A DNA stretch of 64,000 nucleotides from a virus (lineage: Duplodnaviria; Heunggongvirae; Uroviricota; Caudoviricetes). Location of the stretch: IMG/VR virus record IMGVR_UViG_3300008267_008434; one strand, 5' to 3'. The notes beneath the pieces are model-generated. The model worked only from the letters and a program-made list of their open reading frames with translations, was not told the origin of the DNA and did no database searches. A program made the position numbers and the translations under genes. This document shows positions 1-53,238 of this stretch, piece after piece (within the stretch, counting starts at the first letter, position 1; each line of letters begins with the position of its first letter).

Positions 1-1942
1 ACCTTCAGTTGGTGATTTTATTACAATATATTATGACGGTAAATGGGATATAAATAACACTTGTTATAATTTACCAACCCCAACACCATCAGCGTCCGTC
101 GCATCAACACCGACACCAACCCCAACACCAAGTTCAACGTATACATTTGTGTGTTCGGCAACACCAACGCCAACACCAACTAAGACACCTTGTTTAACAC
201 CATCAAACACACCTGCGTGTCCTCCACCACCTATGGCGGATTGTTATATGTCAATTAATAGTTGTTATCCAATGATGACATATAGAATTATTGCGTACTG
301 TAACAATGTTATTACTGTTGATAGGAATTTACCTGACTTTTCATCATTTTCTGGGTCATGTTATTCAAGAACATTAATCTATCCACCAAATATGACAACA
401 CTTTATGATAGTATAACACCGGCACCTCATTGGAGTAGTGATGTTATTAATTTTGAAACTGTTTGTGATATTGATGAGTTTGATGTTAAAATATGGAACA
501 TGAATATTCCTTGGAGTGAAAATCCTGCAGGTTTATATCCTGCAACATATGAGGGATATGAATATTTTGGATCAATAGATTATCTTGGGACAAAAGAATA
601 TTTTGGATACGCATCAAGTTTGGGACAAAAAGACACTAGTTCGGTATATTACTACAATTCATTTGATGAAAAGATTACGGTACAACCTGAAGAACAAAAA
701 GCAATTGCAATAATACATTATACAAATCAAACCATTGACTTCTTCTATGGAGAGAAATTTGCGCTAGAACCATATGATTCCGCAAATCCTGATGATACAA
801 CAGGACAAGCAAGAAACTTTAAATTACATCTACCTTGGTTGATGTGGCATAAAAATCCTGCGTGTTGTTCGGGAGAAACATTTTGGGTTGATCCTGCGGG
901 GTTTGAAGATAAAAATCTATTTGATGTCCAATACATACAATCAAATAAAAATTCAGGGATGAATCAACCTGGTATTAGATATTATCATCTTTGGGATACT
1001 CACGCAAATGCTGATGGATACCCAAGTAGAATTGGTAAAGTATTCCCTGATAGTAAGATAGTTATTATTGATGATGAGGAAATAATTGCGGCGATGTCAT
1101 ATAAGTCAAATAGAAACTGGACTTTACCAGCACCTCAAGTTTCCTTAGTAACCCCAAATACTTGTGGAACACCAACAACAACGGTAGATGGTATCTTAAC
1201 AGGAAATAACGAAACTATGTATGTGACTTATAGATTCACAAATCAAACTGGTTTTACAGATTCACTACATTGTAATTATTACTCAAAAGTAATCGGTAAT
1301 AATAATGATTGTAATCCTGACACATCTAAAAATGTTGCATTAAGATTTGGTGCGGAATTCGGATGTATGGTACAACCTTCATACAGTGCTGGAACACCTT
1401 GTATTACTTCTTGTAACTACTTACCTCAAGGATATTTTGGTACTAATTTTGAAATTCTGTGTCAAAAAGTTATAACAGGAAATAGACCTGACTCAACTCA
1501 ATGGAGAATAATTGATTATACCGATGTTATTAGTGCGTCAACAATTAATGGATATTTAACTCAAGATGGTATTACAGGCACGACATTCGTAATTACACCT
1601 GAATTATACAACGCAGCACCATATTATAATTTAAATAATTACATATCCTTAACTACATTAGGATCCACAGGTGAAACATTAAATTTTGGTGATGAATTTT
1701 ATTTTTATGGTGGTTTGGAAACAGATATCCAAGCAACAATATATGAAATGAAATATAAGATTAATTTGAGTAATGCTGAATTCTTAAACACATCAAATCC
1801 TACTTGGACTCAAGGAACTAAATCATATATTACTGAGATTGCATTATTGGATAGAAATAAAGATATATTAGTAATGTCCAAACTACAATCACCAGTTCTA
1901 AGACAAGGTATCCAACAGTTCGTAGTTAAGTTAGATTTCTAA
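1..1942 (+). CDS. 5'-partial multi-module Cys-rich protein with (Thr-Pro)n linkers; putative virion adhesin or receptor-binding protein
   Basis: Reading frame is open from nt 1, so the gene starts upstream (listed ORF 149..1942 is an internal Met). The N-terminus carries TPTPTPT linkers encoded by (ACACCA/ACGCCA)n, and there are many CNY/Cys motifs. No catalytic motif recognised. Confidence 0.55.
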   Translation, partial: PSVGDFITIYYDGKWDINNTCYNLPTPTPSASVASTPTPTPTPSSTYTFVCSATPTPTPTKTPCLTPSNTPACPPPPMADCYMSINSCYPMMTYRIIAYCNNVITVDRNLPDFSSFSGSCYSRTLIYPPNMTTLYDSITPAPHWSSDVINFETVCDIDEFDVKIWNMNIPWSENPAGLYPATYEGYEYFGSIDYLGTKEYFGYASSLGQKDTSSVYYYNSFDEKITVQPEEQKAIAIIHYTNQTIDFFYGEKFALEPYDSANPDDTTGQARNFKLHLPWLMWHKNPACCSGETFWVDPAGFEDKNLFDVQYIQSNKNSGMNQPGIRYYHLWDTHANADGYPSRIGKVFPDSKIVIIDDEEIIAAMSYKSNRNWTLPAPQVSLVTPNTCGTPTTTVDGILTGNNETMYVTYRFTNQTGFTDSLHCNYYSKVIGNNNDCNPDTSKNVALRFGAEFGCMVQPSYSAGTPCITSCNYLPQGYFGTNFEILCQKVITGNRPDSTQWRIIDYTDVISASTINGYLTQDGITGTTFVITPELYNAAPYYNLNNYISLTTLGSTGETLNFGDEFYFYGGLETDIQATIYEMKYKINLSNAEFLNTSNPTWTQGTKSYITEIALLDRNKDILVMSKLQSPVLRQGIQQFVVKLDF

Positions 1943-2626: not shown

Positions 2627-2660
2627 AAATATCGTCTTTTTAGACGATATTTTTTTTTAT
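2627..2660. terminator. Hairpin (atatcgtc / gacgatat) plus T8 tract, between convergent genes
   Basis: Perfect 8-bp stem with a 6-nt loop, followed by tttttttt. An A-rich flank on the other side makes it potentially bidirectional. Confidence 0.5.
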
Positions 2661-3769
2661 GGTGAACTCGGAGTTGGTGTTGGTGTTTGAGTCAATGTCG
2701 GAGTTGGTGTCGGAGTTAATGTAACACAAGGACAATCAATAAAAACTATATTAATGTTATTACCTACAGGTATCTTATATGATTTTACAGTAATTGTTGA
2801 ACCACCATTTATGTTTATTACTTGAGTCTCGTTATTACTACAGTTTTTAATATTAAAAGTATTTGCAGTATATAGTAAATTAGTTACTTTATACTCACAA
2901 CAAACATCAGGAGTTTGAGTTGGTGTTAATGTAGGTGTAGGTGTTGGTGTAGGTGTTGGAGTTGAACTAACAGGTGGAATACAAACAAGACATCCTCCTT
3001 CAGAAACTAAACCATTCTCAGTGTTCAAGACTATAATATCAACACCACTAATATTATCCGCAGTACCAATGTACTCAATACAAACATCTATCTCATTCAC
3101 TTCCGCCTCATATACCATACCAATTACTGGAGTACCACCTGTCGGGTTTAATATAACATCAGTGGTTGAATAAATAAATCCATTTAAACAATCTTTGAAT
3201 TGTTTGCTATTTGGACATTTAATATAATCATCAAGAGTGTTAAATGTTACTAAACCTGTATAATTACATGGTCTGGTAATTTCAGGTGAAGGTGTTGGAG
3301 TTAATGTTGGAGTTGGTGTTGGAGTTGGTGTATATGTAATACCCGAAACATTAATACCGATCCCACCACAAGGGTTTGTTGAGGTTGGTGTCATTGTTGG
3401 GGTTAATGTCGGAGTTGGTGTCGGAGTTGGAGTTTGTGTTGTGGGTACATCACAATCAAAAATCGCATCAAAATCTATTGAACAAGCAGCACTTGGTGAT
3501 GGAGTTGGTGTAGGGCAAATACCCGAACTAAAAAGTTCATCACATAAATCAGGACAAGAACTTACACAAGGTGATTTACCAAATAATAAACAATTTGGAT
3601 CCCCTAAAGTTAATGCTAAACACCATTGAGTTTGTCCTGTTGAATAATAAATAGTATATGTATCTCCTGTGAAATAATCATAACCCGCATCGTAAGTACC
3701 TGCGGAAAAATATGTACCATCAAAAGATGATGAAGTACCACTTACACAATATTGACCAAAACAAGACAT
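2657..3769 (-). CDS. Multi-module Cys-rich protein with five (Thr-Pro)n linkers; putative structural or adhesin protein
   Basis: 370 aa with TPTPTPTLTPT linkers between ~60-80 aa Cys-containing modules. Paralogous in style to the + strand gene at 1..1942. Confidence 0.55.
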   Translation of the reverse strand: MSCFGQYCVSGTSSSFDGTYFSAGTYDAGYDYFTGDTYTIYYSTGQTQWCLALTLGDPNCLLFGKSPCVSSCPDLCDELFSSGICPTPTPSPSAACSIDFDAIFDCDVPTTQTPTPTPTPTLTPTMTPTSTNPCGGIGINVSGITYTPTPTPTPTLTPTPSPEITRPCNYTGLVTFNTLDDYIKCPNSKQFKDCLNGFIYSTTDVILNPTGGTPVIGMVYEAEVNEIDVCIEYIGTADNISGVDIIVLNTENGLVSEGGCLVCIPPVSSTPTPTPTPTPTLTPTQTPDVCCEYKVTNLLYTANTFNIKNCSNNETQVININGGSTITVKSYKIPVGNNINIVFIDCPCVTLTPTPTPTLTQTPTPTPSSP

Positions 3770-6421: not shown

Positions 6422-6652
6422 ATGACACATAGAGAATTTTATATTTGGTTAGAAGGTTATCTTGCTGGTAAACTTGAAAATAAACATATAGATATTACAC
6501 CTATTGTTGAAAAAATGGGTGAAGTTATTAGTGATGAACAAAAGTGGATTGATGACTTCAAAAGATATAGAGATATTAATCCATTACCAATAAAACCGAA
6601 TCCGTATAACCCACCGTATGAAATTTATTGCGGTACAAAAGACACAGAATGA
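6422..6652 (+). CDS. Hypothetical small protein
   Basis: ORF with ATG directly after the upstream stop (MTHREFYIWLEG...). Confidence 0.4.
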   Translation: MTHREFYIWLEGYLAGKLENKHIDITPIVEKMGEVISDEQKWIDDFKRYRDINPLPIKPNPYNPPYEIYCGTKDTE

Positions 6653-7428
6653 TAAAAAAAATAATACACTTTTCTGATTTACACATTCGTCTTTATAAAG
6701 ATCATGATTTGTATAAGTCAATAATGGAAGATGCGATTAACCAATGGAGAGAAATCAATCCTGATAGAATTGTATTCACTGGTGATTTGGTTCACTCTAA
6801 AAATCAAATGACTCCCGAACTTATTGAAATGGTTCGGTGGTTGCTTTTGGAATGTTCATTTATTGCACCAACAATCATTATACCTGGTAATCACGATTTC
6901 CTTGTAAACAATGTTGAAAGATTAGACGCACTTACACCAATCATTAATTCGTTAAATAATAAAAACATTTTCTATTATAGAGATAGAGGTGTGTATGAAG
7001 ATGAGAATATTAGTTGGTGTGTGTACTCGCAATATCAAGGGAATATTCCTCCTGATTTGAATGTTGCAACAGGAATAAAAGTGGGATTGTTTCACGGACC
7101 AATTCAAGGAATGAAAACCGATTTGGGATTTGACTTTGGAGAGGAGGCGTATGATGTTGAAAAGTTCAATGGACTTGATGTTGTATTATGTGGTGATATC
7201 CATAAAAGACAAGAATTTAACTTTAAAACGGGTAAAGGTTATATGATAGGTAGCCCAATACAACAAAATATTGGTGAAAGTATTGGTAGACATGGATATG
7301 GAGTTTATAATTTAGAAACAAAAGAATATAACTATACGGACTTATTCAACCCCAAGCCATTTTTAAAGTTTGAAATTAAATCATTTGAGGATATTGAAAA
7401 TGGAACCGAATTACTCAAAAATCTTTAA
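6628..7428 (+). CDS. sbcD: SbcD/Mre11-family nuclease (calcineurin-like metallophosphoesterase)
   Basis: All phosphoesterase motifs are present in order: 'FSDLHI', 'FTGDLVH', 'PGNHDF', 'GLFHGP', 'LCGDIHKRQ'. Confidence 0.8.
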   Translation: MRYKRHRMIKKIIHFSDLHIRLYKDHDLYKSIMEDAINQWREINPDRIVFTGDLVHSKNQMTPELIEMVRWLLLECSFIAPTIIIPGNHDFLVNNVERLDALTPIINSLNNKNIFYYRDRGVYEDENISWCVYSQYQGNIPPDLNVATGIKVGLFHGPIQGMKTDLGFDFGEEAYDVEKFNGLDVVLCGDIHKRQEFNFKTGKGYMIGSPIQQNIGESIGRHGYGVYNLETKEYNYTDLFNPKPFLKFEIKSFEDIENGTELLKNL

Positions 7429-8689: not shown

Positions 8690-11065
8690 ATGGATCTGTT
8701 TAATCCACCAAAAACATTTAATTATAAAATTATGATAAAAGATTTAGAGTTTTCTAAATTTGAAAACCCACCTATTCAAGTAGTATGGGAAGACATTTCA
8801 GAGAATTTCACACAAGATAAGATTAAGAGTGTTAAACATTACTTCCAAAAGAAGTACGGTTCCACTAATGTGAATGTTATCACAAAAGTTAAAAACATTC
8901 AGGAAGATACTATGCAAAGTGTTGATGTGTCTGTAAACATTATGGACACAAATTATCAAACTGATTTGTTGAAACAATTTCTTAAGTCTAAGGGGTATGA
9001 AAATCGTATTGATGAGGTTATGTCAATCAATAGAATGGTTGAGAATAAAATGTCTGAATCAGAAGATGAAACCTCATCATTTAAGAAATGGTATATCAAA
9101 AATATTGAATTCTCTAATTTCTTATCATATGGTGATAATCAGCGTATTGATTTTGATAAATGTAATGGTATTACAGTAGTTGAATCTAATCCACCTAACT
9201 TTGGTGGTAAGACAGTATTATCGGTGGATTTATTAATGTTCCTATTCTTTAATGAGACAACAAAAACATCAAAGGCGGAAGAAATCTTTAATCGATTTAC
9301 CGATAAAAACTCGGTAGTTGTAAAGGGTGAAATTATTATTGATGGTGAAGAATATATTATTGTTAGAAACATCGAAAGAAAAATGTCTAAGAAAGGTGAA
9401 TGGAATGTTAAAACCGAATTAGACTTCTTCAAAAAACTTTCCGACGGTAGTTTACAAAACTTTACTGGTGAACAAAGACGAGAAACCGAACAATTCATTA
9501 AAACATCAATCGGTTCTAAAGATGATTTCTTAATGACAATTTTAACCACCGCAACAAATCTTGAGGACCTTTTGGAATCAAAACCAACGGCAAGAGGACA
9601 GGTACTCTCAAGGTTTATGGGGTTGGAGTTTTTAAAGAAAAAAGAAGAATCTGCAAAACAAATTTATTCTGATTTTTCTAAATCAATGTTATCTAATGTT
9701 TATAATACTGAGCAATTAAAAAGTGATAATGAACAATATGAAACTGATATTGAAAATTTTAAAACTAGTATTGATACATTGAAAGACGAACTTAATCAAG
9801 TTGAAGTAAACTTAACAAAGGGTAAGGATTATCGTGACGATATGTTAAAAAAGAAACATACTGATATAGATAATGATATTGCTCAAACAAACCCTGATAA
9901 GGTACAAGATGAGATTAACTCATTTGAGTATCAAAAAGGTGACATCATTAAGAAGTCAAATGAATTACAGGTAGTTGAACCATCTTCTTTTTATTATGAG
10001 GATCAACACGATAAGGTTAAAGAAGAATATAACGAAGTATTCAAGGAAAAAATCCAAGTTGAGAGTAAGATTAAATCAATTGAGGAATTAAAGAGTTCCG
10101 TTGATGGTGGAATTAAATGCGAACACTGTGGTATTGATTTAATGATGGCATCAATCACCCAATCTAAAATTGCCGAACTTGATGGTTATAATAGGCAAAA
10201 AGAGGAAAAAGAGGGGTTAATGACGGTTTTATCAGGCAAAGAACAGGCATTTGTACAACTTAAAAAAGAGTTTGATGAGTATGAGAAAAACAAACTTATT
10301 AAAGAAAAATATGATTTGAGTATTGAGAGTTATAATCTTAAAATTGAAAATTTAAAACAAAAATTAGGAAGGTATAACGAATTGATTGAAAAAATTAAGG
10401 AAAATGAGAAGATTGAGGGTATGTTGTTAAAAGCAGGTATTAGAATTGAGGAACTTGAAAGAGAAAAGACTCAAAAACAAACACTAATCAATAATAATAC
10501 TTACCAAATCACCTCGTTGGAAGATAAGATTAAAAATAATTTAAATACAATAATCAAAATTCAGGAGGAATCTGAAAAAGAAAAATTATATAAAATATAT
10601 TTGGAGGCGTTCGGTAAAAATGGGATATCTAAAATCATAATGAAAACTATGATGCCGATAATAAACTCAGAACTTCAAAGACTAATGGAGGATAGTTCAT
10701 ACTTCAAACTTGAAGTTAGAATTAACGATAAGAATGAAGTTGAGTTTATGATGATTGACAACGGTACTGGTGTTGAGAAATTAATGACATCAGGTTCAGG
10801 TTATGAAAAAACAATTGCATCATTGGCATTGAGATCAGTATTAAGTAAGATTTGTTCGTTACCAAAACCAAATATAATTGTCTTTGATGAGGTGTTCGGA
10901 AAAATATCTAACGACAATTTGGAAATGGTTTCAGAATTCTTTATTAAAATTAAAGAATATTTTGAGAAAATATTTGTCATTACACACAACCCAATGGTTA
11001 ATCAGTGGGCGGACACCATCGTTAAGATTAGAAAAGAAGATAATATTTCAAAGGTATATCAATAA
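8690..11065 (+). CDS. sbcC: SbcC/Rad50-family ATPase with CxxC zinc hook
   Basis: N-terminal P-loop is a variant ('ESNPPNFGGKT'). The central part is long coiled coil with 'IKCEHCGID' (zinc hook). C-terminal signature 'SGSGYEKTIASLAL', Walker B 'IIVFDEV' and His-loop 'ITHN' follow. Confidence 0.8.
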   Translation: MDLFNPPKTFNYKIMIKDLEFSKFENPPIQVVWEDISENFTQDKIKSVKHYFQKKYGSTNVNVITKVKNIQEDTMQSVDVSVNIMDTNYQTDLLKQFLKSKGYENRIDEVMSINRMVENKMSESEDETSSFKKWYIKNIEFSNFLSYGDNQRIDFDKCNGITVVESNPPNFGGKTVLSVDLLMFLFFNETTKTSKAEEIFNRFTDKNSVVVKGEIIIDGEEYIIVRNIERKMSKKGEWNVKTELDFFKKLSDGSLQNFTGEQRRETEQFIKTSIGSKDDFLMTILTTATNLEDLLESKPTARGQVLSRFMGLEFLKKKEESAKQIYSDFSKSMLSNVYNTEQLKSDNEQYETDIENFKTSIDTLKDELNQVEVNLTKGKDYRDDMLKKKHTDIDNDIAQTNPDKVQDEINSFEYQKGDIIKKSNELQVVEPSSFYYEDQHDKVKEEYNEVFKEKIQVESKIKSIEELKSSVDGGIKCEHCGIDLMMASITQSKIAELDGYNRQKEEKEGLMTVLSGKEQAFVQLKKEFDEYEKNKLIKEKYDLSIESYNLKIENLKQKLGRYNELIEKIKENEKIEGMLLKAGIRIEELEREKTQKQTLINNNTYQITSLEDKIKNNLNTIIKIQEESEKEKLYKIYLEAFGKNGISKIIMKTMMPIINSELQRLMEDSSYFKLEVRINDKNEVEFMMIDNGTGVEKLMTSGSGYEKTIASLALRSVLSKICSLPKPNIIVFDEVFGKISNDNLEMVSEFFIKIKEYFEKIFVITHNPMVNQWADTIVKIRKEDNISKVYQ

Positions 11066-13288: not shown

Positions 13289-14089
13289 ATGAAGGAAAAA
13301 GGAACAGGAATGCCCATTAATCAGGATGAAATCTCTCACTACCTAAAGGATATTAGGAAGATTAAAGTTATGACACCTGAAAGGGAAAAAGAATTATCTA
13401 AACTTATGATGTCGGATACTTTAACTGACAAACAACGAAAACAAGTTGAACAGGAGTTGTTAACAGGTAATTTACGATTTGTTATTACCGTTGCAAAACA
13501 ATATCAAAATCAAGGTTTGGATTTTCCTGATTTGGTTGCTGAGGGTAACTTAGGGTTATTGAAAGCAATTAAAAACTTTGATTGGAGTAAAAATTTGAGA
13601 TTTATTTCATATGCCGTTTGGTGGGTTAAACAATCTATTATTCAGTCTTTAAATGACAATGCGAGAACAATTAGACTTCCTGTAAATGTTGTTCAGGAAC
13701 TTCATAAAGCTAAAAAAGAAATTGAGAATAATGGAGGAAAACTATCGGATAAATTCTCATCTTTACCATCAATGATTGACTTAGATATGAATATCAATGA
13801 TGAGGGAGATACATTCCTTGATATGATACCAAATATGGATGCAGACGCTCCTGATGCGGCTTTTAATACTGCGGACATTCTTAAAGAAAAATTAATCAAT
13901 ACACTTAGTGTTTTAGATGAAAGAGAACGAGTAATTATTGAGGATTATTTTGGACTTAGTGGAACACCAAGAACTTTGGAAGATATTGGAGGTGATTTTG
14001 GTTTAACTAAAGAACGAGTAAGACAGATTAAAGAAAGAGCTTTGAGAAGGTTACGAAATGAGAGTTCTGAATTATTTGATTATATCTAA
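13289..14089 (+). CDS. RNA polymerase sigma factor, sigma-70 family (regions 2-4)
   Basis: Region 2: 'LRFVITVAKQYQNQGLDFPDLVAEGNLGLLKAIKNFD' and 'YAVWWVKQSI'. Region 4 HTH: 'LTKERVRQIKERALRRLR'. Confidence 0.85.
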   Translation: MKEKGTGMPINQDEISHYLKDIRKIKVMTPEREKELSKLMMSDTLTDKQRKQVEQELLTGNLRFVITVAKQYQNQGLDFPDLVAEGNLGLLKAIKNFDWSKNLRFISYAVWWVKQSIIQSLNDNARTIRLPVNVVQELHKAKKEIENNGGKLSDKFSSLPSMIDLDMNINDEGDTFLDMIPNMDADAPDAAFNTADILKEKLINTLSVLDERERVIIEDYFGLSGTPRTLEDIGGDFGLTKERVRQIKERALRRLRNESSELFDYI

Positions 14090-23045: not shown

Positions 23046-23975
23046 ATGAATATTCCGAATTATTACGACATATTAGGTGTTCCTGAAACTGCAACCCAAG
23101 ATGAGATAAAAAAAGTATATCGTAAACTGGCAAAAGAAAATCACCCTGATGCTGGTGGTGATGAGGAAAAGTTTAAGCAAATTGCTGAAGCATATGATAC
23201 TATTGGTGACGATAACAAACGACAAGAGTATGATATGAGAAGAAAGAACCCATTTGCAGGAATGGGAGGAGGTGACGATATATTCCAACAGATGTTTAAT
23301 CAGGCATTTGGTAATCGTAGACAAAAAAATGTGGTACATGATTTAGTTATTGATACTGAATTAAAAGTTACTGAATCATATTTGGGTGCGAATAAAGAAA
23401 TCACATATCGTAGGAAATTAAAATGTGATCCATGTAATGGTAGTGGGGGTGAGAAGAAAATTTGTCCCGAATGTAATGGACAAGGTTCTGTAGTGAGACA
23501 GATGGGGTCTGGTATGTTTATACAAATGGTACAAGTTGCTTGTAACACTTGTTCAGGACATGGACGAGTTATTACAAATCCTTGTCATATTTGTAATGGT
23601 AGTGGGACTAAAGATGAGATGAAAACTGTTGAAGTTAAATTACCTAATGGTATTGATGATGGACAATTCATCCGATTACAAGGTGTTGGGGATTTTAGAA
23701 ACGGTGTTTATGGTAACTTAGTTGTTAGAGTTAAATTGGTTTCTGATAATAATTTTGAAAAGTACGGACCTCACTTAATTTATAATGCTTATTTCACATT
23801 GGATGATTTGAAGAAGAGTGATTTTGAAATACCTCATCCTGACGGTACGGTAAGGTTAAGATTCCCAAAGACATTTGATACAACAAAACCCTTAAGAGTT
23901 AAATCAAAAGGGTTTAAAGGTGAAGTGATAGGTGACTTGTTGGTTAACCAGCATGTCCGATTTGAAAGGGATTAA
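23046..23975 (+). CDS. dnaJ: DnaJ-family co-chaperone (J domain plus four CxxCxGxG zinc-finger repeats plus C-terminal domain)
   Basis: 'YYDILGV...HPD' J domain. Repeats 'CDPCNGSGG', 'CPECNGQGS', 'CNTCSGHGR', 'CHICNGSGT'. Confidence 0.85.
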   Translation: MNIPNYYDILGVPETATQDEIKKVYRKLAKENHPDAGGDEEKFKQIAEAYDTIGDDNKRQEYDMRRKNPFAGMGGGDDIFQQMFNQAFGNRRQKNVVHDLVIDTELKVTESYLGANKEITYRRKLKCDPCNGSGGEKKICPECNGQGSVVRQMGSGMFIQMVQVACNTCSGHGRVITNPCHICNGSGTKDEMKTVEVKLPNGIDDGQFIRLQGVGDFRNGVYGNLVVRVKLVSDNNFEKYGPHLIYNAYFTLDDLKKSDFEIPHPDGTVRLRFPKTFDTTKPLRVKSKGFKGEVIGDLLVNQHVRFERD

Positions 23976-29157: not shown

Positions 29158-29472
29158 ATGGAAATTACAGGAAATCAATTACAAGAAAAAATAAATAATG
29201 GTGAGAAAGTAATCGTTGAATTATGGGCAACTTGGTGTGGACCCTGCAAAATGATGAAACCAATTTTTGAAAGAGTTGCAACTGAAAATACTACTAATGT
29301 ACAGATGTATACGATGGATGTTGATCAAAACAGAGAAGTTGCAATGGCATTAGGGGTTAGGAGCGTACCGACAATTAAAGTATTTAATGGTGGGAATGTA
29401 ACTAACACAAGAGTTGGGGTTCTCCAAGAAAATGAAATAAAAGGTTTAGTTCAAGAATTAATCAATGGATAA
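29158..29472 (+). CDS. trxA: Thioredoxin
   Basis: 'WATWCGPCKMMKP' carries the CGPC active site in a thioredoxin-length protein. Confidence 0.85.
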   Translation: MEITGNQLQEKINNGEKVIVELWATWCGPCKMMKPIFERVATENTTNVQMYTMDVDQNREVAMALGVRSVPTIKVFNGGNVTNTRVGVLQENEIKGLVQELING

Positions 29473-29749
29473 GGTAGTAGTATTATTCACAATGGAAGGA
29501 TGTCCTTTTTGTGTTGAGATGAAAGATATGTTAGTTAAAGAAGGGATTGATTTTGTTGATCGCGACATTGACGAATATGAAGAGGAATATAATATGTTTG
29601 TTGAGATAACAGAGAATGAATTTGTTCCGGCATTTATGTTAATTGAAAATCCTGAGACAGAACCGATTAGTCAATTATTTGCACCTGATAGAGATTATCA
29701 AGATTTAGAAGACGGTGTCAAGATAATTAGAGAATGGATTGAGAAATAA
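29465..29749 (+). CDS. Glutaredoxin-like protein (NrdH/Grx, CPFC active site)
   Basis: 'MEGCPFCVEMKDML' at the N-terminus. 94 aa. Overlaps trx by 8 nt. Confidence 0.7.
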   Translation: MDKVVVLFTMEGCPFCVEMKDMLVKEGIDFVDRDIDEYEEEYNMFVEITENEFVPAFMLIENPETEPISQLFAPDRDYQDLEDGVKIIREWIEK

Positions 29750-29785: not shown

Positions 29786-30483
29786 TAGAATAGAATTATA
29801 TGTTCTAATAAATCTTGTTTAAGGTACGGTTTTTCACCATCAGGATTCAGGACATCATCAATTAAATTATAATCCGACAAACGCTCTCTAAATGAGTCCA
29901 TATTAAAATCAAATACATCAAGAATAAGTGACTTAATTGATTTCTTGTCAATTTTTGAGTCGGATATAATTTTAATTTTTAAATCTTCATTATTATCTTC
30001 CTCAGTGGTGAAATAAAATGATACTTCATTGACACCTAATAAATTAAACATATGGTTCATTATGTAATGTGAGTAATATGTGTTTAACCTTCCACAATCT
30101 AAACTATAACCATATGGGAATTCTGATGAAATTGATATTTCTGAAATATCAGGTTCAGGTTCCTCAACAAAAATATCTTTCTTTACCATAACCCAACCCT
30201 TATGAATTGTGTTTATATCCTGATTATATCTAACAACATCAATGGTATTAATATCTGACATTTCCAGCTCCTTCAGGGTATCACCAAAAGATTCCTTGAA
30301 CTCATTTTTAATTTCGTTTATGTCTAAATACTCATTTGATGTTGTTAAACCATTAACAACCATAAATGCACCACAATCTGTGACTTGGATAATTGATTTT
30401 TCTGTTTTGTTGATTTTTGAGAGAATAAAGTCGGCAAATAAATTTACGATTCCTCTTTTTGAATTTTTGTTAATTAATCTCAT
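29785..30483 (-). CDS. Acidic hypothetical protein
   Basis: 232-aa minus-strand ORF. Confidence 0.45.
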   Translation of the reverse strand: MRLINKNSKRGIVNLFADFILSKINKTEKSIIQVTDCGAFMVVNGLTTSNEYLDINEIKNEFKESFGDTLKELEMSDINTIDVVRYNQDINTIHKGWVMVKKDIFVEEPEPDISEISISSEFPYGYSLDCGRLNTYYSHYIMNHMFNLLGVNEVSFYFTTEEDNNEDLKIKIISDSKIDKKSIKSLILDVFDFNMDSFRERLSDYNLIDDVLNPDGEKPYLKQDLLEHIILF

Positions 30484-31859: not shown

Positions 31860-33368
31860 ATGAAAAAAGTAATTAGACTTACCGAATCAGATTTAATTAA
31901 AATAATTAAAACTAAACTCAACGAAGAAGAATCTGAATTTATTGAAATTCCCGCAAATGAATATGAACAGTTATTATCTGTAACTGGATATAATGGTGCG
32001 GCTCTTGAAAAGACAAGAAGGTTTAGAGGTAAGAAAATAAAAGTAAACGGTAGGTTAGATATATCAGGTAAACCAGTTACAAATCTTGGAACAATATATC
32101 TACAAGGATCATTAGAGGCAACTAGATCAAAGTTAGAAACTTTAAATGGTGTGACAATTACGGGGTCTAAATGGTACTATAATACACCATTGGAGTCTAA
32201 AGAAAAGATAAGGAAACGAAGAAAAGAATTGGATGATGCCCAAGAAAGAAGAGAAAATGGTGTGTGGGACTTAGATTATCCGAACATTGATGATGAGGGA
32301 TTAAAAGCAAATGCTGCGTTTCAGTACCTTGTTGAAAATGGTGAGATAGAAGAAATAACATCAGAAGAAAAAAGAGAATTAAAAAATTTAGAACAAAGAC
32401 AACTTAATATTTCTGATAGAATGGAAGCGGAAAATGATGAGGAACTTTTATCTGAATTGCAAAGTGAATACGATGAATTACAAGAAGACATTGATGATTT
32501 ATTAAGAAAGGAAAATAATGATGTTTATGGATTGATACCCAAAAGTTTTGGACATTATAATATGTTATCTTTTATGACAACATATGATGATTTTAATGAT
32601 GTGACAATTGCCGTTGGAACCGAATATGAAGCGGATGAATCAAAAAAAGAATGGGTTGAACAATTATTGGATGATGGAGGATATAGACACTTTAATCAAT
32701 ATACGGTTGAAAGACATATTGATGGTGATGAGGTTGCCGACTATTTTGAAGATGTTATTAGAGAATGGATATATGATGATCCTGATAATTATGACGTTGT
32801 AAAAGATTTAAGTAGAAGTCAAAAAGATGAACTTTGGGTTCTTAAAATGGAGAAATGGGTTTATGAAAATGAAGGAGTCAGGTTTCCAATAAAGTACCCA
32901 ACAAAAGAAGAAAATGGAACTGTATTTGATTTTTGGGATGAAGATGAAGAACACGAATTTCAATTAAAATATGAAGGAAATAAGTGGGTATTATATAAAG
33001 ACGGATCGATAGTTCAACCAGGTCAACTATATGATGATGAAGACACTGACGATCACCAAGATGATCGTGAAAGTAGAATTTCTGATATTGAATATGAAAT
33101 ACAAGAAATTGAAGAAAATCCTGATGGTGATTTGGATGAAGATTCGGTTGAAGAAAGGGTTGAAGATAAAAAATACGAAATTTCTAATGACCCTATAAGT
33201 TGGTTGAGAAATTACGACATGGATGTTGATAATTTTATTGATGAAAAGGCATTTATTGAAGATGTTGCTGGTGATGAGGATTATGGTATTTTGAATGGTT
33301 ACGACTCAACATATGATATTATTAATTTGGGTAACCAAAGTTATGTTGTAATGATAACCGATAAATAA
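31860..33368 (+). CDS. Hyper-acidic protein with conserved N-terminal leader 'MKKVIRLTESDLIKIIK'
   Basis: 502 aa, D/E-rich. The N-terminal 16 aa are nearly identical to those of the genes at 47314, 47615 and 47952. Confidence 0.5.
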   Translation: MKKVIRLTESDLIKIIKTKLNEEESEFIEIPANEYEQLLSVTGYNGAALEKTRRFRGKKIKVNGRLDISGKPVTNLGTIYLQGSLEATRSKLETLNGVTITGSKWYYNTPLESKEKIRKRRKELDDAQERRENGVWDLDYPNIDDEGLKANAAFQYLVENGEIEEITSEEKRELKNLEQRQLNISDRMEAENDEELLSELQSEYDELQEDIDDLLRKENNDVYGLIPKSFGHYNMLSFMTTYDDFNDVTIAVGTEYEADESKKEWVEQLLDDGGYRHFNQYTVERHIDGDEVADYFEDVIREWIYDDPDNYDVVKDLSRSQKDELWVLKMEKWVYENEGVRFPIKYPTKEENGTVFDFWDEDEEHEFQLKYEGNKWVLYKDGSIVQPGQLYDDEDTDDHQDDRESRISDIEYEIQEIEENPDGDLDEDSVEERVEDKKYEISNDPISWLRNYDMDVDNFIDEKAFIEDVAGDEDYGILNGYDSTYDIINLGNQSYVVMITDK

Positions 33369-33404
33369 TTTACAGATGACAAAACCTTTATTATACTTGA
33401 ATAA

Positions 33405-34196
33405 ATGGCAAGAAAAAAGAAAAATAAAGGAATTGAATTTATAATGGAAACAGATTGGTTATTTGAAAAACCAATTGATCAAGAACACAAAGAATATAAA
33501 TTATTAAGTTACTTCCAAAAAATGGGAGAGAAACTTGATAATATGGAACTATATCCTGGTTTCATAGAGTTGTCATTGCATTTGGCAAGTATTCAAACCC
33601 TAATTAAAGATAAAAAATTAATTTATACTGATAAGAAGTTTGATACGATTGATGATGAACTCCTTGTTAAGGATTTGAAAATCAAACAAATTCCTGACAT
33701 GACACAGGAAGAAACTCAAGAGTTTATTAGTATATTAAAATTTTCCGCACCAAGACTAATGGAGTACTTCAATGTTGCAAAGTCCGTGTGGTCAGTCGTG
33801 TTTGAAACAATTGAAGTTAAAATTAAAAAGAACAAAAAAAATCTATCGTTAAACAAAGGATACTTTTACTACAATGAGAATAAAACAAATAGTTTATATG
33901 TTTGGGAGTACAACATAACACCAGCATCAAGAGGTTCCATTGAGAAAAAAACACTTGTAAATTTAATTCATTCCGAACCAAAAGATAAGTTGACTATACC
34001 AAAAATAATTAATACATTTTCTCAATGGAGTTCTGATGAAGAAAAACCATCATTACCTGTGTTTGAAATGAAATGTAGTGATATATTCCCAATCAATGAA
34101 ACATTACTACCATTATTCAAAAGAAAACTGATTTCATATATTAATCAAGAAATGTATGGGAAAGAAAAAAAAGTGATACAAATTAAAGTTAAGTAA
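33405..34196 (+). CDS. Hypothetical protein
   Basis: 263-aa ORF. Confidence 0.45.
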   Translation: MARKKKNKGIEFIMETDWLFEKPIDQEHKEYKLLSYFQKMGEKLDNMELYPGFIELSLHLASIQTLIKDKKLIYTDKKFDTIDDELLVKDLKIKQIPDMTQEETQEFISILKFSAPRLMEYFNVAKSVWSVVFETIEVKIKKNKKNLSLNKGYFYYNENKTNSLYVWEYNITPASRGSIEKKTLVNLIHSEPKDKLTIPKIINTFSQWSSDEEKPSLPVFEMKCSDIFPINETLLPLFKRKLISYINQEMYGKEKKVIQIKVK

Positions 34197-34294: not shown

Positions 34295-34486
34295 GTGAAA
34301 ATAATGGGATTCAACAAGAGGATACTCAGAAAAGATAATATTATTAATAATCTTGATAACCTATCAAGATATCTATCAGCCGATGCAATTATTATTAGTG
34401 ACGACTTTTCAAATGAAGTGTTCAAAATGTTCTGCGAAGGAAAAACTGAGGATGAAATCATAAAATATATAAATAAAAACAAATGA
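34295..34486 (+). CDS. Hypothetical small protein
   Basis: 63 aa with ATGA overlap into the GS gene. The antisense ORF 34288..34482 was judged spurious. Confidence 0.3.
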   Translation: MKIMGFNKRILRKDNIINNLDNLSRYLSADAIIISDDFSNEVFKMFCEGKTEDEIIKYINKNK

Positions 34487-35682
34487 AGATTAAACTTGAA
34501 TATCTGTGGTTAGACGGATATATGCCGGAACCAAATTTAAGAAGTAAGGTAAAAATTGTTAATTACGATGACATAAAAAATTCATTTATAACGGGTAGAT
34601 TTCCTGAATGGAACTTTGACGGATCATCAACAAACCAAGCAGAAACTGGGACTTCAGACTGTATTTTAAAACCTGTAAGACATTATTTGGATGATAAATT
34701 TGGTAGTGTGTATGTTCTTTGTGAGGTTATGAATTCAGACGGAACACCACATCAATCAAATACCAGATCATTACTTGGTAATGAACAAGAGGATTTGTGG
34801 TTTGGTTTTGAACAAGAATACTTTATCTATGATAGAAAAAATAAATGTATTTTAGGCCACGATGAAAACAACTTGGAACCACAAGGTAAATATTATTGTG
34901 GTGTTGGAGAATATGTTGCGGGTAGAGAATTTGTTGAAGAACATATGAATTTATGTTTAAGGTATGGGATTAACATAACAGGAATAAATGCCGAGGTTGC
35001 ACTTGGACAATGGGAGTATCAAGTATTCTCTCAAGGTAAATTGAAATCAGGAGATGATTTATGGATGTCTAGATACCTATTACATAAGTTGTCCGAAAAA
35101 TATAATTATGGGATTGAACTACACCCAAAACCAATCCAAAAAGGTGAATGGAATGGATCTGGACTTCACACAAACTTCTCAAATTATAAAATGAGGGAAG
35201 AAGGTGGTGAAAATCATTTTAAATCAATTTTCTCAAGTTTTGCCACAAGACACCAAGAACATATTGAAAATTATGGTTCATCAAATGAATTAAGATTGAC
35301 GGGTAAATTTGAAACCCAATCAATTAATAAGTTTAGTTGGGGTATTTCAGATAGAGGTGCATCAATTAGAGTTCCACAATCAACCGCAAAAGAATGGAAG
35401 GGATATGTTGAAGATAGACGACCATCATCTAATGCTGATCCATATAAAATCATTTATCAAATATGTGAATCATTAAGAAACGCTGAAGAGATTGACGACA
35501 TCAAACATAAAATGAATTATAAACTTGATATGGACAACCTTAAGATGGATTATAAAACAATCCCAACCGATGAACTATTAAAAGAATACTTCAATGATGA
35601 AGAATTTGAATTGGATGGTAAAACAATGGATGGAAGTAATATCCCTACAAAAGAAATTAAATTTGATTTAAATGGAAAATAA
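34483..35682 (+). CDS. glnA: Glutamine synthetase, type II (eukaryotic-like GSII)
   Basis: 'PEWNFDGSST', 'YYCGVGEYVAGREFVEEH', 'GINAEVALGQWEYQV', 'NGSGLHTNFS' and 'ASIRVPQS...GYVEDRRPSSNADPY' are near-identical to GSII signature regions. Length 399 aa. Confidence 0.85.
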   Translation: MKIKLEYLWLDGYMPEPNLRSKVKIVNYDDIKNSFITGRFPEWNFDGSSTNQAETGTSDCILKPVRHYLDDKFGSVYVLCEVMNSDGTPHQSNTRSLLGNEQEDLWFGFEQEYFIYDRKNKCILGHDENNLEPQGKYYCGVGEYVAGREFVEEHMNLCLRYGINITGINAEVALGQWEYQVFSQGKLKSGDDLWMSRYLLHKLSEKYNYGIELHPKPIQKGEWNGSGLHTNFSNYKMREEGGENHFKSIFSSFATRHQEHIENYGSSNELRLTGKFETQSINKFSWGISDRGASIRVPQSTAKEWKGYVEDRRPSSNADPYKIIYQICESLRNAEEIDDIKHKMNYKLDMDNLKMDYKTIPTDELLKEYFNDEEFELDGKTMDGSNIPTKEIKFDLNGK

Positions 35683-36511
35683 TATATTTAACAAATTACC
35701 CGGAATGATGTTTGGTAAGGGTGAGGGTAACATTAGTTGGTACCCAGAAAGGATTCATACCCTACAAGATTTGGTATACCAAATTAAACCAAGAAATATT
35801 ATTGAAATAGGATTCAATGAAGGACATTCAATGGTTTTAATATGTGAGACATTATTGAAAATAATTAATGAAGATCCTGATTTTAATAGGAAACCAATAA
35901 TTGTTTTTGTATTTGATGACTGTAAATATGAGAGTACTGTTAACAATCACTCAATACTTGCCAAGCATTACAGGAAGTGGAACATACATTTGAGTTTATT
36001 TCCTGGTAACTCCCTTGAGGTTGTTCCAAGAGTTTTAGACACATCAAAAACAAAATTTGATTTTATTGAGATTGATGGGTGCCACTTTGAGGAATGCGTT
36101 AGAGGTGATATTAATAATGTGATTAATTTTATTAATGATGATGGTATTGTATATTTGGATGATTATAAGTCCTCAAAAGATCCTACTGAAGGTGTTAATA
36201 ATGTAATTGAATCATTTGACTGGCAAGGATTTAATACCTATCATATTGATGGAGTATTTTGGGCTCACAAAAAGAAAAAAGAAATGGAAGAAAAAAAGGA
36301 ACAAGTAAATCACCCTAACCACTATGGGGGAGAGTCAAACCCATATGAAGCAATCAAGGTGATTGATGCTTGGGACTTAGGATTCTCCCTTGGTAATACT
36401 GTGAAGTATATCTCAAGAGCGGGTAAGAAAGAGTTAGATAAAGAATTACAGGATCTTAAAAAAGCATTGTGGTATTTGCAACACCACATTGAAACATTGG
36501 AGAAAAAATGA
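35672..36511 (+). CDS. Fusion: class I SAM-dependent methyltransferase domain plus C-terminal DUF3310
   Basis: 'IIEIGFNEGHS' (motif I-like) and 'FIEIDGCHFEE...GIVYLDDY' (Methyltransf_24-like). C-terminal 'VNHPNHYGG...IDAWDLGFSLGNTVKYISRAGKK...DLKKALWYLQ' is the DUF3310 signature. Confidence 0.55.
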   Translation: MENNIFNKLPGMMFGKGEGNISWYPERIHTLQDLVYQIKPRNIIEIGFNEGHSMVLICETLLKIINEDPDFNRKPIIVFVFDDCKYESTVNNHSILAKHYRKWNIHLSLFPGNSLEVVPRVLDTSKTKFDFIEIDGCHFEECVRGDINNVINFINDDGIVYLDDYKSSKDPTEGVNNVIESFDWQGFNTYHIDGVFWAHKKKKEMEEKKEQVNHPNHYGGESNPYEAIKVIDAWDLGFSLGNTVKYISRAGKKELDKELQDLKKALWYLQHHIETLEKK

Positions 36512-37110
36512 TAGAAACAGGAAAAATAATAACAGGAGATTGTATTGAGGTGATGAAAACATTACCTGAAGGGTCTGTGGATTTAATCGTCACATCACCA
36601 CCCTACGGAGTCGGGATTGCGTATGATACCCACGATGATGATGTGGAGTTTGAGGAGTATTTGGTATTTGCCAAAAATTGGTTAACTGAAGCATATAATG
36701 TTTTGAAAGATGATGGACGAATCGCGTTGAATATTCCATATGAAATCAATAGACAAAAGAAAGGGGGAAGAATTTTCTTTGTTTCTGAAATGTATCAATT
36801 AATGAAACAAATTGGGTTTGGTTTCTTCGGTATCGTGGATTTAGAAGAAGATTCACCTCATCGTAGTAAAACAACTGCTTGGGGATCTTGGATGAGTCCG
36901 TCAAGTCCGTATATTTATAATCCAAAGGAGTGTGTAATACTTGCATACAAAAAACACCACATTAAAAAGGTTAAGGGAGAACCTCAGTGGAAAGGGACAC
37001 CTACTGAAATTGAACAGGAGGATGGAACCATAAAAAAGAAAGTTGTATATGAAGAACAAGATAAGAAGGAGTTTATGGAACTTGTTTTTCACCAAACTAT
37101 ACCGAGATAG
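36508..37110 (+). pseudogene. Truncated beta-class DNA methyltransferase (N-terminal half only)
   Basis: 'LIVTSPPYGV' catalytic motif is present, but the ORF stops after 200 aa. No downstream 'DPFxGSGTT' SAM motif I in any frame before the terminator. Confidence 0.5.
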
Positions 37111-37172: not shown

Positions 37173-37203
37173 AAAACCCACCTTAAAAGTGGGTTTTTTT
37201 ATT
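37173..37203 (+). terminator. Rho-independent terminator
   Basis: aaaacccac-loop-gtgggtttt followed by a T-run. Confidence 0.6.
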
Positions 37204-52107: not shown

Positions 52108-53238
52108 ATGGAAAATCAAAATAGCGTAGCATATGTTGGAAAAATAGGTTCAGTAGTTGAAATACCAAATGCTGACAACATAGAACTTGTACTTGTTGGT
52201 GGATGGCAGGCGATAACCAAAAAAGGTGAATACCAAGAAGGAGATAAAGTTGTTGTTGCAACCACTGATGCGGTAATACCACAAGCATTGTCTGACTTGA
52301 TGGAAGTGACTAACTACCTTCGTAAAGGACAACGAGTTAGAACCGTAAAACTTCGTGGATTTTATTCCGAATGTTTGTTAATACCATTCAAGTACTTGGC
52401 ACCAAAATCATTGGTGAACAATGTTAATGAAGGTGATGATATGATGGAAATACTTGGAATAACCAAATACGAACCACCGGTTAAAATGGTTACTTTGGGT
52501 GGAGGTAAGAAAGTTAGATACCACCAAAATCCAAACTTCCATATCTATCACAAATTCCCAAACATGAAGAATGTTCCTGATATGTTCACCGAAGAAGATG
52601 AGGTTGTTATCACCCGTAAAATACACGGAACTAATGCCAGATTTGGAATAGTTAGAAAGAAAAAACTTTCTTTGTGGGATAGAGTGAAAAAGTTCTTCGG
52701 TAATGAGTGGGTTGAGTTTGAATATGTGTATGGTTCTCATAATGTGGAGAAAGGATCTGATTCTCAAGGATTCTACGATACTGATGTGTGGAGAGAAGTT
52801 GCCAACAAATATGACATACGAAAAAAACTTTGGGATCATGTTAAGGATACATATTACCCTGAATCTTTGGAACAAGGACTTACTATCTATGGGGAAATCT
52901 ATGGTAAAGGAATCCAAAAAAACTATGAATATGGTTTGGAGGAAATAAAGTTTGTTGGTTTTGATGTTGAAGTTGATGGTGTTTATCAACCACACCTTGA
53001 AGAAACCGTTCATTTTGATTGTTTGGAACTCCCACAAGTTGAAGTATTATATGAAGGAACTTGGAGTAAAGAAGAACAAGATAAATATGTCTTCGGTAAT
53101 TTTATAAAAGGAACCAAAGTTCCTCACGAAGGTATCGTTGTTAAATCTGTGACTGGTGATCGTCATAAAGTTGCAAAGGTTATCAATCCTGATTATTTAA
53201 TATATGGGGAGAAAAATAATGTTGGTGACTCCCATTGA
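52108..53238 (+). CDS. ATP-dependent RNA ligase (Rnl2-like nucleotidyltransferase)
   Basis: Motif I 'RKIHGTN' (KxHGT), motif IV 'HEGIVVKS', motif V 'KVAKVIN'. Confidence 0.6.
   Translation: MENQNSVAYVGKIGSVVEIPNADNIELVLVGGWQAITKKGEYQEGDKVVVATTDAVIPQALSDLMEVTNYLRKGQRVRTVKLRGFYSECLLIPFKYLAPKSLVNNVNEGDDMMEILGITKYEPPVKMVTLGGGKKVRYHQNPNFHIYHKFPNMKNVPDMFTEEDEVVITRKIHGTNARFGIVRKKKLSLWDRVKKFFGNEWVEFEYVYGSHNVEKGSDSQGFYDTDVWREVANKYDIRKKLWDHVKDTYYPESLEQGLTIYGEIYGKGIQKNYEYGLEEIKFVGFDVEVDGVYQPHLEETVHFDCLELPQVEVLYEGTWSKEEQDKYVFGNFIKGTKVPHEGIVVKSVTGDRHKVAKVINPDYLIYGEKNNVGDSH

Follow-up and report, generated by a model that had tools for sequence, protein, structure and literature searches.

The window, the whole 64-kb stretch of viral DNA analysed here, carries an ATG-initiated open reading frame whose 399-amino-acid product is a full-length type II glutamine synthetase (GSII; the phage gene and its product are called GS below), with a match to this family far beyond chance (Table 1). 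Both Pfam domains exceed their gathering thresholds, Gln-synt_N (PF03951) with E = 1.8e-8 and 34.3 bits against a cutoff of 33.4, and Gln-synt_C (PF00120) with E = 7.8e-19 and 68.4 bits against a cutoff of 24. The top NCBIfam model is GlnII (333 bits, E = 1.8e-99); the models for the other GS types score 56 bits (GSI) and 40 bits (GSIII), and the model for gamma-glutamylputrescine synthetase (GGputSyn) only 32 bits against a cutoff of 650, so that the best homologs are not GS-like ligases of another kind. A sequence-only reading of this DNA had called the product a full-length GSII on the strength of five signature blocks, and both the call and the blocks hold up: we located PEWNFDGSST at residues 41–50, YYCGVGEYVAGR at 137–148, NAEVALGQWE at 169–178, NGSGLHTNFS at 224–233 and SIRVPQSTAKEWKGYVEDRRPSSNADPY at 294–321, the spacer lengths given in that reading being only approximate. 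In addition, the two classical GS signature patterns match the query and all 120 clusters of its closest relatives.

The phage GS stays below the NCBIfam equivalog cutoff for GlnII, which is set at 500 bits. Under the same model, GlnII proteins from isolate genomes of Flavobacterium and Cellulophaga score 363–368 bits, and other cellular and MAG sequences 365–427 bits. Because the GlnII of isolate Bacteroidota also remains below 500 bits, the cutoff excludes this whole branch and not the phage protein specifically, and we discarded it as an uninformative discriminator.

Comparison with solved structures gives the same assignment. The best 16 matches by sequence are all GSII decamers, headed by yeast Gln1 (3fky, E = 3.4e-89) and including the Streptomyces enzyme (4bax, E = 2e-84); GSII matches span 1e-70 to 3e-89, and those to GSI are 1e-8 or weaker. 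An AlphaFold model of the monomer (mean pLDDT 72, pTM 0.74), when searched against the PDB with Foldseek, retrieves GSII for each of its top 50 hits.

Table 1. Features at the GS locus, in window coordinates.
Feature	Position	Strand	Basis or remark
Two genes (502 aa and 263 aa, neither matching a family) that open the same-strand run with GS	31860..34196	+	ORFs; order kept in relatives at 66–81% GS identity
Small upstream ORF (60–63 aa, no function assigned)	34295..34486	+	ATGA overlap between its stop and the start of GS
Glutamine synthetase type II gene (399 aa plus stop)	34483..35682	+	ORF, Pfam, NCBIfam, PDB sequence matches, fold
GSII catalytic core, residues 1–335	34483..35487	+	Human GS residue mapping, clade conservation, core dN/dS
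Acidic C-terminal tail, residues 336–399 (64 aa)	35488..35679	+	Alignment, AlphaFold, profile search, dN/dS
Methyltransf_24-DUF3310 fusion	35672..36511	+	11-nt overlap between its start and the 3' end of GS
N6/N4 DNA methyltransferase, truncated, 200 aa	36508..37110	+	282–283 aa in contigs that are identical elsewhere
Hairpin plus T-run resembling a terminator; candidate end of the GS transcription unit	37173..37197	+	Consensus scan only

A conserved phage locus

GS is embedded in a phage operon, as its start and stop codons overlap both neighbouring genes, and it is probably co-transcribed with them. The small upstream ORF is called in contigs L001–L006 and kept in relatives, and a DUF3310 gene lies 3' of GS in all relatives examined. 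At the truncated methyltransferase gene the window is ~183 bp shorter than contigs L001, L002 and L003. Scanning the region for terminators returned six sites against 2.4 expected; a scan for sigma-70 promoters (45 sites against 43.8 expected) was uninformative.

The remaining gene content of the window bears out the description, made from the sequence alone, of a phage-like early region, since the neighbours of GS are phage replication, early and modification genes. Nearly all genes lie on one strand, and GC content is uniform at ~30%, the GS locus included. The window encodes a DNA primase, an exonuclease, an SbcC/SbcD-like nuclease pair, a sigma-70 family factor, three DNA methyltransferases, the DUF3310 fusion, thioredoxin, glutaredoxin, DUF932, NUDIX and SLT lysozyme proteins, an RNA ligase with RNA-repair HAD domains and a full-length DnaJ, together with many ORFs that match no family. 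Cellular housekeeping genes and tRNAs are absent from the window, and its 64 kb contain no capsid (MCP), terminase (TerL) or PolB gene. The thioredoxin–glutaredoxin pair and the nearby NUDIX, kinase and phosphatase genes resemble a nucleotide-metabolism neighbourhood, a description that fits only loosely.

The locus recurs widely. The exact GS protein occurs on 22 public contigs, the longest in the 0.2–1 Mb class, in an identical neighbourhood, and at least 582 IMG/VR viral contigs encode GS relatives, among them contigs of 274 kb and 291 kb. Relatives at 81%, 73% and 66% identity keep the same gene order, one of them on a contig of 317,792 bp, and related contigs overall measure 130–318 kb. 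In this conserved order, DUF932, thioredoxin, glutaredoxin, two reverse-strand genes, two unknowns and the small ORF precede GS, and DUF3310, the N6/N4 methylase, DUF192, NUDIX, AAA_33 and Metallophos follow it. GS is therefore a phage-encoded gene within a bona fide phage genome. We give almost no credence to the idea that host DNA was mis-assembled or mis-binned into a viral contig: many assemblies, independent of one another and drawn from various samples and sources, show the gene in the same phage order, the gene shares the GC content of the locus and overlaps its phage neighbours, and no cellular sequence found comes closer to its clade than 40% divergence. What speaks for such an artefact is that the data are all metagenomic and that the isolate phages in INPHARED contain no close GS homolog; a megablast search with 20 kb likewise found no near-identical phage in that collection.

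An intact catalytic core with clade-specific additions

The core of the enzyme comprises an N-terminal beta-grasp domain (approximately residues 1–100) and a catalytic domain (approximately residues 101–335). To place its active-site residues, we aligned the query with 120 cluster representatives of its closest relatives (together, the phage clade), 79 cellular GlnII sequences taken from GTDB species genomes, three homologs from huge phages and five references. Of these references, four were copied from PDB alignments and the fifth is human GS, whose numbering is self-consistent at all 22 listed positions, each residue type falling where it was expected. The alignment gives E110, E112, E171, E178, H229 and E310 as metal ligands, which correspond to human E134, E136, E196, E203, H253 and E338. 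The ammonium, glutamate and ATP sites comprise D46, S49, W106, Y138, N224, G225, S233, R238, R271, the flap residue E277, R291, R296, Y308, R312 and R313; their human counterparts include D63, S66, Y162, N248, G249, S257, R262, R299, E305, R319, R324, Y336 and R340.

All 21 of 21 catalytic, metal- and substrate-binding positions are kept in the query, and each of them in at least 120 of the 121 phage-clade sequences, the six Mn/Mg-binding Glu and His residues included. Codon comparison with relatives at 66–81% protein identity gives a dN/dS of 0.08–0.13 for the core, a ratio that is approximate since dS, at 1.2–1.8, is close to saturation. A conserved active site together with low core dN/dS is the signature of a working enzyme, and GS is probably competent to convert glutamate, NH4+ and ATP to glutamine. 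The earlier suggestion that the gene is not degraded and probably active is thus borne out as regards its intactness.

Upon comparing the C-termini, we noticed that the phage enzyme runs far beyond its cellular relatives. Past the DPY motif the query continues for 78 residues; 71 cellular GlnII sequences have 11–20 there, rarely up to 34, and every one of the 120 phage-clade clusters extends at least 30 residues further than cellular GlnII. Cellular GlnII proteins measure 329–344 aa against the 399 aa of the phage GS, which likewise does not match the compact GSII form (about 330–375 aa, with a short C-terminus after DPY/DPF). The core being intact, the long C-terminus reflects a gain and not a loss. 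Across the clade the tail ranges from 30 to over 100 residues, some members adding modules and reaching 457 aa. Its first module (approximately residues 336–372) is universal in the clade, with E364, L365, L366 and Y369 94–98% conserved (ELLxxY), and the pattern E[LI]LxxY occurs in 78 of 80 IMG/VR copies. About three quarters of the clade also have the second module (approximately residues 373–399). Overall the tail is acidic (17 D/E against 10 K/R) and evolves under purifying selection weaker than that on the core, with a dN/dS of about 0.3–0.5. In the AlphaFold model it has a low pLDDT of 45–58, the last core helix being prolonged to residue 345 and followed by short helices.

Two candidate origins of the tail were rejected. 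A BLAST alignment to E. coli GlnA that ran through the tail had suggested the C-terminal helical region of GSI; a tail profile found no GS in the PDB, and shuffled comparisons gave p = 0.05–0.13 with a mean z of 1.4. A degenerate copy of the N-domain ‘FDGSS’ element reached p = 0.008 in a pairwise comparison with whole GlnA, lacked profile support and was set aside as unproven. The tail-only profile retrieved no relative from the PDB, its best hit (E = 0.47) being an unrelated protein.

The conservation of the tail raises the idea of a regulatory or moonlighting protein, one that still makes glutamine but whose tail docks a host or phage partner, such as a nitrogen regulator or a transcription factor, or confers insensitivity to host control. 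We consider this unlikely. A tail that all 120 clade clusters carry and cellular GlnII lacks, that holds a motif at least 94% conserved and that is under purifying selection would be in keeping with it, as would the predicted flexibility with short helices, which is what one expects of a docking motif. In Bacillus, feedback-inhibited GS binds TnrA and GlnR, which offers an analogy for such docking. However, the tail has no known partner and no homolog in the PDB profile search, and modules past the first vary or are missing from a quarter of the clade. Every catalytic residue, moreover, is strictly conserved, which shows that catalysis itself is selected.

A second set of differences lies near the active site. 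The residue before the flap glutamate is Phe276 in the query and Phe or Tyr in 116 of the 121 clade members; a His occupies this position (TGxHET) in 79 of 79 cellular, three of three huge-phage and five of five reference sequences. Relative to cellular GlnII, the loop at residues 123–131 is remodelled in the phage clade, and the DPxR motif near residue 70 is remodelled or lost. The substitution at the flap and the remodelled loop, along with the two DNA/SAM methyltransferase genes directly downstream, could be taken as signs of a GS-fold amide ligase that acts on another substrate, for example a gamma-glutamyl-amine synthetase or a ligase that modifies phage DNA or a metabolite. We judge this alternative, which the sequence-only reading had also raised, to be very unlikely, because the ammonium pocket (D46, S49, Y138, E171 and the flap E277) and the glutamate-binding residues (R271, R291, R312, N224 and G225) are invariant, those for ATP and metal are kept as well, and the GGputSyn model scores far below its cutoff. 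Furthermore, E. coli GSI, a true GS, carries a Tyr before the flap glutamate (PGYEAP); an aromatic residue at this position is thus compatible with GS chemistry.

Taken as a set, the tail, the flap change and the loop might define a distinct, undescribed enzyme variant in which they alter oligomerisation or regulation, or tether a partner. We regard this as doubtful. If it were true, GS would escape or manipulate host nitrogen control rather than add enzyme copies. The available portions of the literature that we searched contain no description of the tail, of the His-to-Phe/Tyr change or of the remodelled loop.

Ancestry of the phage enzyme

In GTDB, scanned with one genome per species, at least 598 loci code for GS relatives. 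Going by record titles, about 60 of the best 80 cellular homologs (49–57% identity by tblastn) belong to Bacteroidota, many of them from isolates, such as Flavobacterium faecale WV33 (on a complete chromosome), Cellulophaga baltica DSM 24729, Leeuwenhoekiella polynyae and Eudoraea adriatica. The statement that Bacteroidetes hosts normally rely on GSIII and GSI, on which the sequence-only reading had built, is therefore not supported.

We placed these sequences in a neighbour-joining tree of GSII (328 shared columns, 100 bootstraps), a distance method applied here to a small eukaryotic sample and to cellular sequences pre-selected as best matches. All 100 bootstraps recover the phage clade as monophyletic. 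An equally supported split (100/100) groups it with bacterial GlnII and the huge phage LR756501, and leaves eukaryotes, Streptomyces and the huge phages LR756502 and LR745206 on the other side. Over the same 328 columns, the core of the phage GS is 55–60% identical to bacterial GlnII and 43–49% identical to eukaryotic GS. Monophyly and a position on the bacterial side of the split point to a single acquisition from bacterial GlnII, which would have occurred long enough ago for over 40% divergence. The immediate sister of the phage clade is a pair of SAR86-type gammaproteobacterial GlnII sequences (L015 and L075), a placement that, with 72 of 100 bootstraps, is not decisive; we did not retain a single donor lineage from this tree, Bacteroidota and Verrucomicrobia being the alternatives.

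GSII is the type found in eukaryotes, and an origin in a protist or giant virus, from which the gene would have passed to the phage, is one alternative; the sequence-only reading had named a horizontally acquired eukaryote-like gene. By E-value, yeast Gln1 is indeed the top PDB match, though the PDB holds only one bacterial GSII. The tree puts the phage clade with bacteria, not with eukaryotes, the core identities agree with it, and the abundance of type II GS among aquatic bacteria is a long-established observation (PMC1821046). A eukaryotic source is, in our view, highly improbable.

The comparison with individual relatives separates what the phage enzyme shares from what it has gained. Bacterial GlnII, as in F. 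faecale WV33 (L023) and C. baltica (L036), has the same two domains and all catalytic residues in common with the phage GS and lies on its side of the main split, but it lacks the phage tail, carries His before the flap glutamate and differs in the 123–131 loop and the DPxR region. The eukaryotic decamers (yeast Gln1 3fky, maize 2d3a and human 2qc8) share fold and catalytic residues with the phage enzyme; the Foldseek matches to them have E = 1e-28 and a TM-score of 0.65–0.79. They lie across the split and are without the tail. The huge phages LR756501/LR756503, LR756502 and LR745206 (634–735 kb) have GSII genes of their own, 44–55% identical to the query, without the tail motif and with His kept before the flap glutamate. 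LR756501 falls among Bacteroidota-type sequences and LR756502 and LR745206 with the eukaryote and Streptomyces side. These placements indicate acquisitions separate from that of the clade studied here, and GSII has entered phages on at least three independent occasions.

A probable role in glutamine supply during infection

With a probability that we put at about 0.72, GS is an ordinary biosynthetic enzyme, acquired once from bacteria, that sustains glutamine supply during infection. This is the auxiliary metabolic gene of the sequence-only reading, which we find to be the best of its proposals in view of phage context, cellular ancestry and purifying selection. The ancestor of a group of large aquatic phages (contigs up to ~318 kb) would have taken a bacterial GlnII once, and the lineage would have kept it as a syntenic gene. 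Expressed from the phage operon, the enzyme would convert glutamate, NH4+ and ATP to glutamine, so that glutamine could keep flowing independently of host GS expression and regulation while gene expression and nitrogen control in the host are disturbed. This supply would support replication of a very large phage genome (200–300 kb). For enzymatic activity, expression timing and physiological benefit, we infer each from the genomic evidence.

Glutamine is the amide-nitrogen donor for the synthesis of purines, pyrimidines (CTP), GMP, NAD and amino sugars. A Pfam search of the 96 ORFs of the 64-kb window found no glutamine amidotransferase or other obvious glutamine consumer, and the link from GS to nucleotide synthesis is thus conjectural rather than directly supported. 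If the proposed role is correct, it suggests that large aquatic phages invest in the nitrogen assimilation of the infected cell, which bears on nutrient cycling.

That a virus should carry GSII had been thought unusual when this DNA was first read. GS as an auxiliary metabolic gene of large phages is in fact already known. The Global Ocean Sampling study of 2007 noted a viral type II GS group and found type II GS abundant and diverse in marine bacteria (PMC1821046). According to the available text of three later reports, GS is present in 9 of 25 genomes of moraphages (PMC12619734), 248 GS genes occur in 247 huge phages (bioRxiv 10.1101/2025.02.27.640493), and glnA is common in large mudflat phages, where it groups with prokaryotic homologues (a 2026 study, PMC13172472). 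As far as their accessible portions go, these reports describe GS on 200–300 kb phage genomes from freshwater and marine sources, as in the clade studied here, and the published placement of large-phage glnA with prokaryotes (PMC13172472) is the one that we obtain. The same portions of the three papers (PMC12619734, PMC13172472 and 10.1101/2025.02.27.640493) make no mention of GS type, of a C-terminal tail or of the clade substitutions.

Because GS as an auxiliary metabolic gene has been published, our finding confirms existing knowledge more than it extends it. What stays of interest is the conserved tail of a very widespread phage enzyme, together with its flap-adjacent substitution, the tail in particular posing a concrete structure–function question. 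Our literature search returned no report of a biochemical test of any phage GS; this, with the wide spread and the age of the clade, makes its enzyme a sensible choice for a first biochemical study of a phage GS.

One published group with which the window can be compared is that of the moraphages, which, in the available text, are freshwater-dominated, measure 200–307 kb, have predicted hosts in the Flavobacteriia (Bacteroidota) and frequently encode DnaJ; the lineage is defined by TerL, MCP and PolB trees (PMC12619734). Moraphages are described there as carrying DnaJ/DnaK and, in some members, GS, and the window likewise has DnaJ and GS. With related contigs of similar size as well, the window may come from a moraphage or from a relative of that lineage.

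Independent acquisitions of phage GSII and a possible donor

The type II glutamine synthetases (GSII) encoded by three huge phages of 634-735 kb (L087, LR756501; L088, LR756502; L089, LR745206) fall into two separate regions of the neighbour-joining tree. They also lack the acidic C-terminal extension (residues 336-399 in the window's enzyme), whereas the glutamine synthetases of the phage clade, that is the window's GS and its viral relatives, carry it. Tree position and missing tail together indicate at least three independent gains of GSII by phages.

Among cellular sequences, the GlnII of a gammaproteobacterial MAG (L015) and of a SAR86 single-cell genome (L075), whose contigs we presumed to be cellular, stands nearest to the phage clade in 72/100 bootstraps. 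Because these two sequences lie closest, the tree hints that the donor of GS, or the phage host, was not necessarily a member of the Bacteroidota.

The neighbourhood of GS

The thioredoxin-glutaredoxin pair upstream of GS is present in all relatives examined and is kept at matching positions in the loci compared (L090-L094). Downstream, the DNA methyltransferase is truncated relative to its counterparts in three contigs with a near-identical GS locus (L001, L002 and L003), which encode 282-283 aa and contain ~183 bp more than the window, with flanks 99.9-100% identical. The shortening is a strain-level deletion or else an artefact of assembly.

We further observed that six ORFs, among them the gene that opens the GS operon and a tandem of three small genes, share a nearly common N-terminus (MKKVIRLTESDLxRIV or a variant), while the remainder of their sequences differ. 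Such a start occurs in 6/103 of the window's ORFs, vs 0.01 expected from shuffling. The peptide could be a common targeting signal, a packaging signal or the mark of a paralogous family.

Features of the window
Feature	Coordinates	Strand	Details
Large protein	149-1942	+	Long Pro-Thr repeat linkers (PTPTPTPT...)
Large protein	2657-3769	-	Long Pro-Thr repeat linkers (PTPTPTPT...)
SbcD/SbcC-like nuclease pair	6628-7428 and 8690-11065
Sigma-70 family factor	13289-14089		Phage-encoded
DnaJ	23046-23975		Full-length; J domain, CXXCXGXG zinc-finger domain, C-terminal domain
Thioredoxin-glutaredoxin gene pair	29158-29749		~5 kb upstream of GS
N6/N4 DNA methyltransferase	36508-37110		Truncated, 200 aa; junction near 37086-37089
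RNA ligase	52108-53238		phrog_968; PF09414 and PHA02142 OB-fold domain
MKKVIRLTESDLxRIV-type ORF starts	31860, 37553, 45577, 47314, 47615, 47952

Other genes of the window

Neither Pro-Thr linker protein matched a family; a role at the surface, as a fibre or as an adhesin-like protein is possible for both. Alongside the sigma factor, no multisubunit RNA polymerase was seen within the 64-kb window. DnaJ is reported as common among moraphages, a group of large phages (PMC12619734). After position 30000, the window also contains genes with HAD 'Swiss Army Knife' RNA-repair domains, together with an AAA_33 kinase; their co-occurrence with the RNA ligase suggests an RNA (tRNA) repair module.
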